Source: a virus (Duplodnaviria; Heunggongvirae; Uroviricota; Caudoviricetes). Taken from it: a stretch of 17,896 nt of DNA. Below the pieces are notes generated by a model that had not been told where the DNA came from, did no database searches, and saw only the letters and a program-made list of their open reading frames with translations. The position numbers and the translations under genes are program-made. Each line of letters begins with the position of its first letter. The first letter of the stretch is position 1. The stretch lies in IMG/VR virus record IMGVR_UViG_2778261639_000005. One strand, written 5' to 3'. Shown piece by piece: positions 1,969 through 6,850 of the stretch.

Positions 1969-3063
1969 ATGAGCAGACCGGACTGGGGGGCGTTGCAGCA
2001 GGAGTATATTGCTGAATACACCCGCTCCGGTATATCTCCGGTGGCATGGTGTGAAGCAAGGGGACTGAACTACGCAACAGCCCGTCGTTACATCAAAAAA
2101 ACTCCGAAAAATGCGCAGAAAGAAATGCGCAAAACTGCGCAAAAAAGTGCGCGAAAAAAAACTGCGCAGACTGCGCAAAGGCAGAACGGAAAATCTCAGA
2201 AAAAAAAGGCTGTATCCGATGCACTCCTGATTGAGGGGGACACGGAAGAAATTTCGTTCTGCCCCGATGAATTCGGTATTTCTGACCAGCAGGCAAAATT
2301 CGCCATGTTGGTTGCTCAGGGGAAAAAGCCGACAGAGGCATACCGACTGGCTGGTTATGAGGGGCAAGGTGCGACAGCTAACAGCAACGCCAGCCGTATG
2401 CTTAGAAATGCCAGGGTTTATCGTGCTATCAGCTACTTCCGCAATCAGTACCAGAAACGCTATACCGCAGACCTGGATTTACTGGTGAGCCAGTTGATGG
2501 CCATTGTCCAGGCCGACCCCAATCAGTTGGCACAATTTCGCCGTGTTAACTGCCGTTATTGCTGGGGCGAGAATCATCTCTACCAGTGGCGTGATATTGC
2601 AGAATTCGATAAGGCTGCGGCACAGGCCTCCAGAGATGGTAAACCCGAGCCGGAATATGGAGGCCTCGGCTTTGTTGATAACGCCATACCCAATCCTGAT
2701 TGCCCGAAGTGCTGCGGTGAGGGAACAGGACAGCTTTATATGGCTGATACCACACTGCTTGATGGGGATGCGCGGCAATTATATGCAGGGTCAAAGCTCG
2801 GAAAATACGGTGTTGAGATCCTGCTGGAGGATAAGGCTGCCGCCCGGCGTGAATTGTTGCGTTTGCTTTCTGCTGGCGGGGCATTATGTGCAGATAAGCG
2901 GCTACAGGAACTGGAAATTGAACGGCGCAGAATAGAGAACCAGAAGCTGCGCAAAGAGATCGAAACGGTGGAGGATAATGAACATCCCCAGCCTGTGGCG
3001 ATCAATATTAATGTGGTTGATGCCAGATTAAGGAGTGATGAAGATGATCTCTCCGACGCTTAA
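1969..3063 (+). CDS. Terminase small subunit (Terminase_2-like)
   Basis: Segment ISDQQAKFAMLVAQGKKPTEAYRLAGYEGQGATANSNASRMLRNARVYRAI matches the conserved terminase small subunit DNA-binding motif. AGGA SD 8 nt upstream of ATG 1969. Sits immediately upstream of the large subunit. Contains a Lys/Ala/Gln-rich low-complexity linker. Confidence 0.8.
   Translation: MSRPDWGALQQEYIAEYTRSGISPVAWCEARGLNYATARRYIKKTPKNAQKEMRKTAQKSARKKTAQTAQRQNGKSQKKKAVSDALLIEGDTEEISFCPDEFGISDQQAKFAMLVAQGKKPTEAYRLAGYEGQGATANSNASRMLRNARVYRAISYFRNQYQKRYTADLDLLVSQLMAIVQADPNQLAQFRRVNCRYCWGENHLYQWRDIAEFDKAAAQASRDGKPEPEYGGLGFVDNAIPNPDCPKCCGEGTGQLYMADTTLLDGDARQLYAGSKLGKYGVEILLEDKAAARRELLRLLSAGGALCADKRLQELEIERRRIENQKLRKEIETVEDNEHPQPVAININVVDARLRSDEDDLSDA
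2112..2177. repeat. Array of palindromic TGCGCA hexamers (5 perfect copies plus 1 TGCGCG variant) inside the terminase small subunit gene
   Basis: TGCGCA at 2112, 2126, 2136, 2163 and 2172; TGCGCG at 2148; spacing 9-15 bp. Flanked by A-rich tracts. The copies coincide with Ala-Gln codons of the linker. Confidence 0.6.
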
Positions 3064-4345
3064 TGTGCCTCAGGCGCGATTTCTTTCAATGCCCCATAAA
3101 TTTAAAGCCTATATTGCTGGTTTTGGCTCGGGCAAAACATGGGTTGGGTGTGGCGGCATATGCAAGGGGATTTGGGAGCATCCAGGTATAAATCAGGGAT
3201 ATTTTGCGCCAACGTATCCCCAAATTCGCGATATTTTTTACCCTACAGTGGAAGAAGTTGCTGCTGACTGGGGATTGAACGTAAAAATTAATGAGGGAAA
3301 TAAAGAGGTTCACTTTTATTACGGACGCCAGTATCGGGGAACCACTATCTGCAGATCGATGGAGAAGCCACAAACGATCGTCGGTTTCAAAATTGGTAAT
3401 GCGCTGGTGGATGAACTGGACATTTTGCCGAAGGAAAAAGCCAGAACGGCGTGGCGCAAGATAATTGCGCGTATGCGTTATAAGATTGATGGACTTCGCA
3501 ACGGTATTGACGTTACAACCACGCCGGAAGGATTCAAATTTGTCTACGAGCAGTTTGTTAAAGCCGTGCGTGAAAAAACAGAGCTGGCCTCACTGTATGG
3601 TCTGGTGCAGGCATCTACTTTCGATAATGAAAAGAACCTGCCAGCAGATTACATTCCTTCACTTCTTGAATCATACCCTCCAGAGCTGATTAAAGCCTAT
3701 CTTCTAGGACGGTTTACTAACCTGACAAGTGGTACTGTTTACCATCAGTTTGACCGGAAACTGAATAATTGCGAAGAAGTGGAGCAGCCAGGGGAGCCGA
3801 TTTATATTGGGATGGATTTTAACGTTGGAAAGATGGCGGGAATCGTCCATGTGCTGCGTTTGGGGCTTCCATGTGCGGTAACTGAAATCATCAATGCCTA
3901 CGATACGCCGGATATGATCCGCCTCATTAAAGAACGCTTCTGGCTGTATGACGGGCATGATTACCGGAAAGTGAGGGAGATTTATATTTATCCAGATGCT
4001 TCCGGAGATTCCAGAAAATCAAGTAACGCAAGTACGACGGATATAGCCCAGCTTAAGCAGGCAGGTTTTAACGTTGTGGTGAACAGCTCGAACCCGCCAG
4101 TAAAAGATCGCGTTAACTCAATGAATGCAATGTTCTGCAATGCCAATGGTGAGCGTCGCTATAAAGTTAATGTGAAGCGTTGTCCGGTATATGCCGAATC
4201 TCTGGAGCAACAGGTCTGGGATGATAAGGGGGAGCCTGATAAAAAATCTGGCAATGATCACCCGAATGATGCCGGAGGTTATTTCATCGTTAAGCAATTC
4301 CCTATTGTCAAACCGACCGGAAGAGTCACATCACTTCGGATTTAA
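3044..4345 (+). CDS. Terminase large subunit
   Basis: Walker A motif AGFGSGKT near the N-terminus. AAGGAG SD at 3030-3035 lies 8 nt before ATG 3044; the track start 3035 is GTG with ATG 3038 too close to the SD. Follows the small subunit and precedes the portal. Confidence 0.85.
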   Translation: MISPTLNVPQARFLSMPHKFKAYIAGFGSGKTWVGCGGICKGIWEHPGINQGYFAPTYPQIRDIFYPTVEEVAADWGLNVKINEGNKEVHFYYGRQYRGTTICRSMEKPQTIVGFKIGNALVDELDILPKEKARTAWRKIIARMRYKIDGLRNGIDVTTTPEGFKFVYEQFVKAVREKTELASLYGLVQASTFDNEKNLPADYIPSLLESYPPELIKAYLLGRFTNLTSGTVYHQFDRKLNNCEEVEQPGEPIYIGMDFNVGKMAGIVHVLRLGLPCAVTEIINAYDTPDMIRLIKERFWLYDGHDYRKVREIYIYPDASGDSRKSSNASTTDIAQLKQAGFNVVVNSSNPPVKDRVNSMNAMFCNANGERRYKVNVKRCPVYAESLEQQVWDDKGEPDKKSGNDHPNDAGGYFIVKQFPIVKPTGRVTSLRI

Positions 4346-4347
4346 TT

Positions 4348-5754
4348 ATGGCTGATATATCAACACCCAACCTCGACTATAACGATATGCTGGAGGCGTG
4401 GGATATTAACGACGCATTGATGGGCGGTACGCTTGAAATGCGCAGGCAGGGGGAAAATTATCTCCCCAAATGGCCTAATGAAGATGAAGACGCTTATAAA
4501 AAACGCCTGTCTGTGGCTACGTTACTTCCTGTGTATGAAGAAAGCATCAAACAAAATATTGGGCGCATATTTGCAGAGCCGACAGTATTGAGTGAGGAAA
4601 CGCCGGAAAAAATCAGGGAATATGCAGAAAATATCGACATGGAGGGGAGCCGACTGGATGTGTGGGCGCAGCAATTTTTCAGTCTCGCATTTCAGTATGG
4701 TGTGGCACATGCGCTGGTGGACTATCCACGAACGGATATGAACGAGATTCGGACAAAAGCCGATGAAAACGCGGCCGGTGGTCGCCCGTACGTTACGATG
4801 CTGAATCCACGCCAGGTTATTGGATGGAAATCGAAAGTTGAAAAAGGGAAAGTTGTTCTCACTGATTTGCGTATAAAAGAGGTCATCATTATTGATGGTG
4901 ATGATTTCGGGCAGAAGAAGGTGGAGCAGATCCGCCATATTATGCCCCGTCGAGTAGAAATTTATCGACGCAGCGAAGGTACTAATGGCGAATCTGTCTG
5001 GATGCTTCATGAGTCATGGAATACCAGCCGTGATGATATTCCTCTGGTAACACTGTATACGAAGAAAACAGGGTTTATGCGTGGTACACCGCCATTGCTT
5101 AATCTTGGCTTGCTGAATATCAAGCACTGGCAAAGCCAGAGCGAGCAGGACAATATTCTTCATGTTGCCCGCGTTCCATTGCTGGTGGCCTACGGGCTGG
5201 ACAGGAATGAAGAACTGACGGTTGGTGCATCCACGGCTACGATTTTTGAGGACAGAACAAAAAATGGCCTCGAATATGTTGAACATAGTGGCGCAGCGAT
5301 AGAATCTGGCGAAACATCACTTGAGAAGCTGGAAAATCAGATGCGTCATTCCGGCGCTAAACTTCTGCGGGCTGAAAATACATCCACCAAATCTGTTGAT
5401 CAGACTAATGAAGAGCGGATGCAGGAACACTCGCCGCTTTATACAATGGCGAACTCCCTCGAAGATGCCCTCGATAATATTCTCCAGATAATGGCGGAAT
5501 GGAGCGGAGAGAGTTGCGGTGGCAATGTGGATGTGCGCACTGAACTGGATGTATCTGCCCAGGTGTTTGACTCATCCTCCGCGCTGGCTGTTCAGTCATT
5601 GCGTCAGGGCGGTGATATACGTCAGATTGATGCGGTTCGGGTGTTGCAGGCGTTGAAATTTATCGATCAGGATTCCCGTCCAGAGGAAGTGATCGATGAA
5701 TTAAAAAATCAGAGTGTAATGCTGATGGAAATCAATGATGCAAACCGTGAATGA
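4348..5754 (+). CDS. Portal protein (putative)
   Basis: 468-aa ORF immediately after the terminase large subunit (stop TAA 4343-4345, ATG 4348) and overlapping the start of the head morphogenesis gene. Size and position are canonical for a portal; no diagnostic motif was verified by eye. Confidence 0.65.
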   Translation: MADISTPNLDYNDMLEAWDINDALMGGTLEMRRQGENYLPKWPNEDEDAYKKRLSVATLLPVYEESIKQNIGRIFAEPTVLSEETPEKIREYAENIDMEGSRLDVWAQQFFSLAFQYGVAHALVDYPRTDMNEIRTKADENAAGGRPYVTMLNPRQVIGWKSKVEKGKVVLTDLRIKEVIIIDGDDFGQKKVEQIRHIMPRRVEIYRRSEGTNGESVWMLHESWNTSRDDIPLVTLYTKKTGFMRGTPPLLNLGLLNIKHWQSQSEQDNILHVARVPLLVAYGLDRNEELTVGASTATIFEDRTKNGLEYVEHSGAAIESGETSLEKLENQMRHSGAKLLRAENTSTKSVDQTNEERMQEHSPLYTMANSLEDALDNILQIMAEWSGESCGGNVDVRTELDVSAQVFDSSSALAVQSLRQGGDIRQIDAVRVLQALKFIDQDSRPEEVIDELKNQSVMLMEINDANRE

Positions 5755-6850
5755 ACGGCTGCGTGATGAATCAATTGCTCATGCAGTCTGGATATCCCGC
5801 TATAGCACTGGCGTGGCTGCCAGAATGGTGAAAATACTGAATGACAGCGATGCGGAACTTACTGCTCGCCTGCTGATAGCACTGGACAGCCTCGATCCAG
5901 GTAGTTTTACCGTTAAGCGCCTGGAGTCACTTCTGGCGAGCGTCAGAGAGGTTAACCGCACTGCTATTAACAGCATGTTTACCAGTCTCTCCGGAGAGCT
6001 GAACGAGCTGGCAATTTATGAGGCTGGTTATCAGTTAAGTCTGTTTGATTCTATGCTACCTGATTTTGTTGCTGATGTTCACCCTCTGGTTGGTATCTCT
6101 CCTGATGCACTTTATGCCGCTGCAATGGCGCGACCATTCCAGGGACGACTGCTCAGTGAGTGGGCCTCAGATCTTGAGGCGGATCGGCTCAGACGCATAA
6201 CAAATACAGTGCGTCAGGGTTTTTTGCTGGGGGATACCAATGAGCAGATCGCAAGAAAAATTCGGGGACATGTCAGTAAGGGATTTCAGGATGGTGCATT
6301 GCAGATGAGCCGGGCTAATGCGGCCAGCATTGCAAAAACAGCGGTTGGACATCTTGCTGCTACTGCCCGTGAGAGTTTTGCCAGCGCGAATAATGATTTG
6401 ATTAAGGGTAAGCAATGGTTATCAACGCTTGATAATCGTACTACGCCACAATGTCGAATCAGGGATCGCCTCAAATATACGCTGAATAATAAACCTGTAG
6501 GTCACAGCGTGCCTTATTTGCAGGGGCCGGGAAAAATTCATTTCTGCTGCCGCTCAACGGAAACGTTCATTCTGAAATCAGCGAAGGAACTGGGTATTGA
6601 TGTTCGCGATATTTCCCCGGCTGAGCGGGCCAGCATGGATGGCGTGGTGGCCGGAGATACAACCTACAGGGAATGGTTTTTGCGTCAGCCTTACACCAGA
6701 CAAAAACAGATTGTGGGGGAAAGCCGAGCAAAGCTGATTCGGGATGGTGGTATGTCGCCAGATGAATTTTACACCGATAAAGGCGAATGGCTGACGCTGA
6801 AGCAGCTCCGTGAGCGTGATGCACAGGTATTCAGAAAAGCAGGGATTTAA
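5735..6850 (+). CDS. Head morphogenesis protein (Mu gpF / SPP1 gp7 family)
   Basis: C-terminal region DNRTTPQCRIRDRL...HSVPYLQGPGKIHFCCRST fits the Phage_Mu_F signature (D-x-R-T...C-R...P...H-x-x-C-R). Located directly after the portal. Stop TAA 6848-6850. Confidence 0.7.
   Translation: MMQTVNERLRDESIAHAVWISRYSTGVAARMVKILNDSDAELTARLLIALDSLDPGSFTVKRLESLLASVREVNRTAINSMFTSLSGELNELAIYEAGYQLSLFDSMLPDFVADVHPLVGISPDALYAAAMARPFQGRLLSEWASDLEADRLRRITNTVRQGFLLGDTNEQIARKIRGHVSKGFQDGALQMSRANAASIAKTAVGHLAATARESFASANNDLIKGKQWLSTLDNRTTPQCRIRDRLKYTLNNKPVGHSVPYLQGPGKIHFCCRSTETFILKSAKELGIDVRDISPAERASMDGVVAGDTTYREWFLRQPYTRQKQIVGESRAKLIRDGGMSPDEFYTDKGEWLTLKQLRERDAQVFRKAGI

Follow-up and report, generated by a model that had tools for sequence, protein, structure and literature searches.

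An array of TGCGCA hexamers inside the small terminase subunit gene of a tailed phage as the likely TerS-recognition part of a headful pac site

Introduction

The pac site of phage P1 spans 161 base pairs (bp) inside pacA and contains seven TGATCA/G hexamers, which are the binding sites of the pacase; the P1 genome is packaged less when these hexamers are disrupted by synonymous changes (PMC10028697). Their location in the P1 record was nucleotides (nt) 194-233 and 324-352 of pacA, flanking the annotated cleavage sites at nt 276-285. The present study concerns an array of TGCGCA hexamers in the small terminase subunit gene (terS) of a tailed phage (Caudoviricetes) of the prophage type, IMG/VR record IMGVR_UViG_2778261639_000005, whose 17,896 nt were analyzed as a whole and are called the window. 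A sequence-only reading of this DNA had put the array forward as a candidate pac or terminase-binding site. The comparative test supported this proposal: the array is conserved at the DNA level, and its hexamer type follows the third helix of an N-terminal helix-turn-helix (HTH) module of TerS.

The arrangement resembles that of P1, in which a palindromic hexamer is likewise repeated six to seven times in the small-subunit gene, 3' of the codons of an N-terminal HTH, and packaging is headful. The P1 hexamer is TGATCA/G, while that of the window is TGCGCA; the array has no GATC in the window, so control by Dam methylation is impossible here. The array begins 9 nt after the last HTH codon (K44), compared with about 70 nt in P1, and the body of TerS belongs to Terminase_2 (PHROG 51) rather than to the PacA family (PHROG 1711). 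Residues 3-40 of P1 PacA aligned with residues 6-43 of TerS at 31% identity (pairwise E 0.007), with a common TARRY motif. Furthermore, PHROG 1711 matched TerS residues 6-79 with E 2.4e-4 and the Providencia relative L008 with E 7e-7, and the N-terminus of P1 PacA scored as HTH_23. These matches suggest a homology between the two HTHs that is weak but consistent in position. Most likely, the array is built on the P1 plan, yet with another hexamer, no Dam control and another terminase body.

Other described systems share single features with the locus. In the headful phage P22, pac lies inside gene 3 and is disabled by wobble-position mutations (PMC11260489). It is thus also found in the small-subunit gene, but as a single asymmetric 22-bp site with a gp3-family TerS, in contrast to the array of short palindromes and the other TerS family of the window. 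The pac site of SPP1 has multiple contact points flanking the cut (PMC9611059). G1P of SPP1/SF6 belongs to the same Pfam family (Terminase_2) as the body of the window TerS, which differs from it by the extra N-terminal HTH; a 6-bp palindrome is also set apart, by their description, from the SPP1 boxes (pacL-pacC-pacR). In lambda, the winged HTH of gpNu1 binds R3, R2 and R1 of cosB beside the cut site. An N-terminal HTH of the small subunit that reads several repeated sites near the cut is what we propose for the window phage as well. However, cos is not a headful system, the R sites are 16 bp long and lie outside the coding region, and the large subunit of the window is T4-like.

The array is present at a fixed position throughout the family, it is constrained at the DNA level, and its hexamer type tracks the type of helix 3. 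From these sequence comparisons, we consider it likely that the array belongs to a pac site for headful packaging and is the part that TerS would recognize.

Results and Discussion

Composition and position of the array

The array lies within an open reading frame (ORF) on the plus strand, 1969-3063, encoding a protein of 364 amino acids (aa). Pfam Terminase_2 (PF03592) matched residues 122-316 of this protein with E 1.2e-8 and 36.1 bits (gathering cut-off 26.1), and PHROG 51, 'terminase small subunit', matched it with E 6e-75, which bears out the earlier placement of the array within a small terminase gene. The window search and reading of the sequence found five exact copies of TGCGCA and one variant, TGCGCG, in 2112-2177, as had been described. 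With frames taken from the sequence and its translation, the exact copies were at 2112-2117 (codon frame xxT GCG CAx), 2126-2131 (xTG CGC Axx, encoding Met-Arg-Lys), 2136-2141, 2163-2168 and 2172-2177. The degenerate fourth hexamer occupies 2148-2153, a position at which most close relatives carry a perfect TGCGCA in the clade alignment.

The spacings from start to start were 14, 10, 12, 15 and 9 bp, in agreement with the range of 9-15 bp given earlier, and the A-tracts said to accompany the hexamers were located as runs of A5 (2107-2111), A6 (2141-2146) and A8 (2154-2161). The term 'phased' was not upheld, as the spacing is irregular both here and in 129 relatives and does not follow the 10.5-bp helical repeat. 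Spacings of 7, 9, 10, 12, 14, 15 and 16 bp were all common in these relatives, and helical phasing was rejected.

TGCGCA was not enriched in the window as a whole, with 11 copies compared with 7.7 expected from shuffles. Five of these 11 fell within 66 bp; when 11 sites were placed at random 200,000 times, no placement was equally clustered. The next copy after the array is at 2948, so the window contains one cluster. In terS, the array corresponds to codons 48-70, its first base lying 9 nt past the codon of K44, the last of the N-terminal domain, and the encoded peptide KNAQKEMRKTAQKSARKKTAQTAQR is a low-complexity basic linker. On the basis of flank frequencies and of its position in homologues, the entire array with its A-rich spacers, 2107-2180, is proposed as the part of pac recognized by TerS.

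Constraint on the DNA beyond the protein

Residues 44-75 were resampled synonymously with the window's own codon usage in 200,000 trials. Five or more TGCGCA were obtained in three trials, corresponding to P ~1.5e-5. The same procedure was applied to 128 homologues, comprising 108 genes with arginine (Arg39) and 20 with lysine (Lys39) at residue 39 of TerS. The hexamer of the respective class occurred about 5.3 times per gene, compared with about 0.55 expected from the protein, and the observed count was reached by none of 2000 resamples in 98 of the 108 Arg39 genes and in 16 of the 20 Lys39 genes.

The use of reading frames pointed in the same direction. One of the six copies of the window stands in another frame (A TGC GCA, read as ATG CGC AAA), so that two frames are used. 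Among the Arg39 genes, TGCGCA started at codon position 3 in 517 sites, at position 2 in 138 and at position 1 in 30, and at least two frames were used in 100 of 109 genes. Hexamers in all three frames were found in Klebsiella phage L003, and Klebsiella phage ST974-OXA48phi18.2 carried six TGCGCA in the frames ACT GCG CAA, CTG CGC ACT and AAG TGC GCA. Resampling, frames and the helix-linked hexamer type described below all favor conservation at the DNA level beyond what the protein requires.

The N-terminal HTH module

Ahead of its Terminase_2 body, TerS has an additional N-terminal HTH module, which together with its linker takes up about 100 residues and is outside the Terminase_2 model. The body, a second HTH with an oligomerization core, is encoded by 2332-2916 on the plus strand (Pfam residues 122-316). 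The N-terminal three-helix HTH, residues 1-45 (1969-2103, plus strand), was delimited from an AlphaFold2 model and profile matches. The model was run on an alignment of 51 sequences; these were short, truncated ORFs of 44-79 aa from a word-indexed N-terminal profile search and are uninformative on domain architecture. The predicted helices comprised residues 6-20, 24-31 and 35-41, with a predicted local distance difference test score (pLDDT) of about 88 over residues 11-40. Within this confident three-helix model, Arg39 (codon CGT, 2083-2085) sits on the third, recognition helix, Y35-Y41 by the AlphaFold2 limits (2071-2091, plus strand).

The top Foldseek matches of the module were all HTH proteins, none of them significant, and a profile search of PDB gave the HTH of the IstA transposase at a non-significant E of 0.04. 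The structure searches thus loosely support the description as an HTH, with no specific family identified. The module was joined to at least three different TerS bodies, namely PHROG 51, 370 and 32222.

Hexamer classes in homologues

Homologues of TerS at 34-44% identity were found by tblastn against phage records in Klebsiella, Yersinia and E. coli phages. Proteins sharing only the N-terminal 45-80 residues were found in Providencia, Klebsiella (RothC/D), Shiga toxin (Stx)-type E. coli phages and a Pasteurella phage. In every tblastn-found relative whose DNA was read, an array directly followed the HTH codons. A further 160 loci, representing about 70 species of Enterobacterales, Vibrio, Aeromonas, Pasteurellaceae and Shewanella, came from scans of IMG/VR and of a genome set with one entry per species. 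Relatives were seen in Klebsiella, Salmonella, Yersinia, Proteus, Providencia, Pasteurellaceae, Vibrio and Aeromonas and in Stx-type phages, and 345 members were returned when 1.8 billion cluster representatives were searched exhaustively with a profile. The pooled set held 141 distinct sequences, including 129 intact genes (109 Arg39 and 20 Lys39), and the array was at the same place in all 129.

The two residues went with different hexamers. The 109 intact Arg39 genes, from Enterobacterales, Vibrio and Aeromonas, contained 3-10 TGCGCA (mean 6.2) and on average 0.1 TGCGAA/TTCGCA, with the first hexamer beginning at gene nt 126-159 and with varying spacers, linker peptides and copy number. The 20 intact Lys39 genes contained 4-8 TGCGAA/TTCGCA (mean 5.6) and on average 0.3 TGCGCA. 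Residue 39 was the sole position in 21-46 without a residue shared between TGCGCA-class and TGCGAA-class genes. Flank frequencies at 674 sites gave the family consensus AAAnTGCGCA(A/G)AA. The Lys-class arrays of Pasteurellaceae were all direct repeats in the frame AAC TGC GAA, while those of Enterobacterales often formed a 12-bp palindrome, TGCGAATTCGCA, in the frame xxT GCG AAT. The comparison solidly indicates that hexamer type stays with helix type across deep divergence while frames, spacers, copy number, orientation and peptides change.

The profile search also uncovered a third class, in Stx-type phages, where the helix NTARTRIKMG is followed by four to five 12-bp repeats, (A/T/C)(T/C)GATCAT(G/A)A. 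These repeats and the P1 hexamer both contain GATC, and the data suggest that in this class a gene of the TGCGCA type has received a P1-like variant that is sensitive to Dam. In the Stx-type IMG/VR loci L174-L213, nt 130-200 of terS held the perfect 12-bp tandem GATC repeats, ATCGATCATGAA.

An unbiased scan of viral contigs for three close TGCGCA found the HTH-plus-array arrangement in 76 of 120 sampled loci. The others were coding low-complexity repeats or putative iterons or operators. Two hexamer clusters were seen in the relatives L010, L012 and L167. On a GC-rich viral contig (L235, 2090-2200), a more distant TerS of PHROG 1206, with a different HTH and the N-terminus ..SNRQIAKKHGVAESTLRKRI.., is followed by six TGCGCA, which indicates use of this hexamer outside the present family as well. 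In addition, clusters of 4-7 TGCGCA outside terminase genes were observed in IMG/VR loci L263, L273, L348, L289 and L331; one stood after a winged-helix-like ORF (iteron-like TTGCGCA), one past the 3' end of a tRNA, and the others were intergenic. For such clusters, a role as origin, as operator or, on satellites, as a mimic of pac is conceivable.

Hexamers were scarce or missing in four loci (L158, L163, L165 and L173), and each of these had a disrupted reading frame. Many database entries of the gene were cut to 44-79 aa or frameshifted within the array (L039, L092, L103, L118, L127, L167; P0121-P0240), and the Shewanella copy had a frameshift at a G5 run (TTAGGGGGATGA). The window itself has A-runs at 2141-2161 and 2200-2207. 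The shortened and frameshifted entries could be due to homopolymer sequencing error, to prophage decay, or to slippage giving a free HTH peptide. Three loci that seemed to end at the array were considered as physical DNA ends and rejected, because the ends were storage-chunk edges inside longer contigs.

Exchange of helix 3 and array

Two pairs of Arg-class and Lys-class genes, L077/L089 and L076/L100, were 100% identical over nt 1-107 and diverged abruptly from codon 36/37 through the array. Several synonymous differences lay inside helix 3. The abrupt divergence and these synonymous differences mark helix 3 and the array as one old recombination cassette, in which the two were exchanged together and not by point mutation, as read from the aligned genes. 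Fitch parsimony on a neighbor-joining tree gave 15 Arg/Lys switches; this figure was rejected as a count of mutations, since the DNA alignment shows recombination.

Proposed mechanism

From these observations we infer binding by TerS, multivalency, recruitment of TerL, and the position and direction of the cut. The N-terminal HTH (residues 1-45) would read TGCGCA, probably through a specificity-determining contact made by Arg39 of the third helix. Candidate partners of Arg39 in the hexamer DNA, AAATGCGCAAAA, would be position 5 or its partner G. In an oligomeric TerS, several HTH domains on flexible Lys/Gln/Ala-rich linkers might grip several hexamers at once, and the avidity of such an oligomer would account for the tolerance of uneven spacing and of a degenerate copy here and there. 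Once bound, TerS would recruit TerL (3035-4345), the presumed nuclease, which would make a first cut nearby and start the headful packaging series.

The proposed recognition site comes straight after the codons of the recognition helix, within the stretch coding for the linker. As the site adjoins the helix codons, helix and site form one cassette of about 100-200 bp that is moved as a unit by recombination. With such a shared cassette, a terminase would never be parted from its own pac site.

Points against the proposal and alternative explanations

Several observations weigh against the array as a TerS-recognition site. Because helix 3 and array were swapped as one cassette, the association of residue and hexamer is partly physical linkage. 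It may be largely so, as helix 3 is about 20 bp from the array, and the independent Arg/Lys switches may be as few as one or two. Within the clade of the window, single hexamers mutate (TGTGCA, TGCACA, TACGCA, TGCGCG), and entropy was only marginally lower in hexamer columns (0.18) than in spacer columns (0.23); the mutated copies fit redundancy, which is weak evidence. P1 has 4 + 3 hexamers around a central cleavage region with an integration host factor (IHF) site, in contrast to the single cluster of six in the window, and P1 PacA has the same ARRY helix motif yet reads TGATCA/G, so no simple code holds throughout. GATC-class genes retain two TGCGCA about 70 bp further downstream (KCAK..NCAN). 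A minority of the family, namely the Shewanella-type L173/L232, P0342, P0345 and P0350, has an ARRYIK helix without such a linker or an array in it, and no TGCGCA cluster was found within 1.5 kb in L173/L232 (Shewanella marina). Finally, a search of the literature within reach, which also covered pac sites of Stx phages and the paper on the Yersinia phage, did not turn up the array, and no report of binding, cleavage or packaging initiation was found in the literature for the window phage or its relatives. A literature match of TGCGCA to the cos end of phage chi, GGTGCGCAGAGC, was set aside as unrelated to the array.

A site bound by the same HTH could also do a job other than packaging, such as autoregulation of the terminase genes, or halt antisense transcription, either as a roadblock or as a terminator. 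All evidence of HTH-hexamer recognition fits this equally well. Moreover, adjacent hexamers and T-runs on the minus strand of 2112-2178 match the pattern of an intrinsic terminator, with three sites in the array out of four in 1600-2500, compared with 0.9 expected from shuffles. We nevertheless find this explanation unlikely, given that the established role of small terminase subunits is the recognition of pac or cos and that the homologous arrangement of P1 has been proven to be a pac site. Hairpins resembling terminators result from the self-complementary hexamer and are absent in direct TGCGAA arrays; the antisense pattern probably arises as a by-product of the palindrome and the A-rich spacers. 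The same holds for conserved mRNA hairpins between the hexamers that would tune translation of terS or the stability of its mRNA. The window RNA 2095-2195 does fold into three 6-bp hairpins (z = -3.85), and L003 and L169 gave z -3.81 and -2.66, but direct TGCGAA arrays at the same position were no better than shuffles (L012, z +0.59; L164, -0.82; L002, -0.90), and the GATC class gave z -1.3. Folding is thus not common to the hexamer classes. As the direct arrays fold like shuffles, RNA structure was rejected as a side effect of the palindrome, and a role of this kind is hardly credible.

The sequence-only reading had offered another alternative, that the repeats are a by-product of the Ala-Gln/Lys-rich linker codons; replication slippage without any function of the DNA would have a similar result. 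The array does encode the low-complexity basic linker, genes differ by entire repeats in their copy number (L057, L063), individual hexamers mutate within the clade, and the tandem repeats of the GATC class are perfect, 12 bp long and in frame. Synonymous resampling rejected this origin. The hexamer occurs in three frames with different peptides (AQ, MRK/LRT, CAK/CAE), persists across genera despite changing spacers and peptides, and switches with helix 3, so that a by-product of the protein is very improbable. It is also conceivable that the hexamers bind another protein, for instance a nucleoid protein of the host, a regulator of the phage or the product of the upstream 83-aa ORF, and that the link to the helix is merely physical. 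Since helix 3 and array are inherited as one cassette, covariation alone is no proof of contact, and ORF 1714-1965, with a match to the TerS-like PHROG 309, stands directly upstream. However, relatives from Yersinia, Klebsiella and Providencia have the array but lack this ORF; in them, terS follows lysis genes or unrelated ORFs. Each hexamer class has been kept over deep divergence only with its own helix type, and a host factor would not account for three hexamer classes in the same host genera. Recognition by another protein is accordingly quite improbable, and recognition by TerS remains the explanation that we prefer.

Large terminase subunit and gene neighborhood

The large terminase subunit gene, terL, is at 3035-4345 on the plus strand. 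Its product is T4-like, with matches to Pfam Terminase_6N (E 3.5e-32) and Terminase_6C (E 7.8e-11), and is of the T4/SPP1/P22 type, not of the lambda gpA type. The family type suggests the headful mode, and the earlier description of a headful-type terminase pair fits Terminase_2 in TerS and Terminase_6N/6C in TerL. Sequence searches of PDB with TerS and TerL gave no matches. The longest terL ORF begins at a GTG and overlaps the final 29 nt of terS (3035-3063). The same overlap is annotated in related phage records, such as ON032529, with terS at 3842-4936 and terL at 4917-6218.

Downstream of terL are the portal gene (4348-5754) and then genes of a MuF-like head protein, a scaffold and a P22-type coat protein. 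Upstream of terS are a ParB-like gene, a homologue of TET-associated glycosyltransferases and the 83-aa ORF. The first two, at 8-853 and 825-1778, matched PHROG 620 and, for the glycosyltransferase homologue, Pfam TAGT (E 6e-35) and PHROG 842, 'beta-glucosyl-HMC-alpha-glucosyltransferase'. Together they may be a DNA-modification module, with the partner methyltransferase or TET, if any, outside the window. The 83-aa ORF (1714-1965) overlaps the end of the glycosyltransferase gene and stops 3 nt before terS. It matched only the middle part of PHROG 309, 'terminase small subunit' (145-218 of 319), with E 8e-23.

The nearest phage records, about 95% identical, were those of prophages induced from E. 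coli and Salmonella. The family is common: the 5'-terminal 432 nt of terS were present in 886 of 5,426 complete E. coli genomes, and E. coli CFSAN061763 (NZ_CP042899) is one strain whose locus is identical.

Implications

How small terminase subunits of headful phages recognize pac is unclear and controversial, according to a 2022 review (PMC9611059). Binding by TerS in vitro was weak and mostly sequence-independent for P22, Sf6, SF6 and SPP1 (PMC9611059). The family described here offers a simple and testable handle, in which a small HTH stands apart from the rest of the protein, the site is 6 bp long and present in 3-10 copies, and specificity variants occurring in nature differ by one residue and one base. 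A known pac site could be used to predict where lateral or generalized transduction starts in these prophages, to design phagemids or packaging-deficient helpers, as for P1, and to spot satellites that mimic the site.

Tentatively, a broader interpretation can be given, which we hold to be possible without leaning towards it: HTH and array may be a portable packaging-specificity cassette common to otherwise unrelated TerS families, with the rule Arg39/TGCGCA, Lys39/TGCGAA and ARTR helix/GATC, so that swaps of about 100-200 bp would change the packaged DNA. The families concerned would be PHROG 51, 370 and 32222, distantly also PHROG 1206 and P1 PacA, and possibly phage satellites too. If this is true, the cassette would be a natural, mutable and compact system for dissecting sequence-specific pac recognition by a headful terminase.

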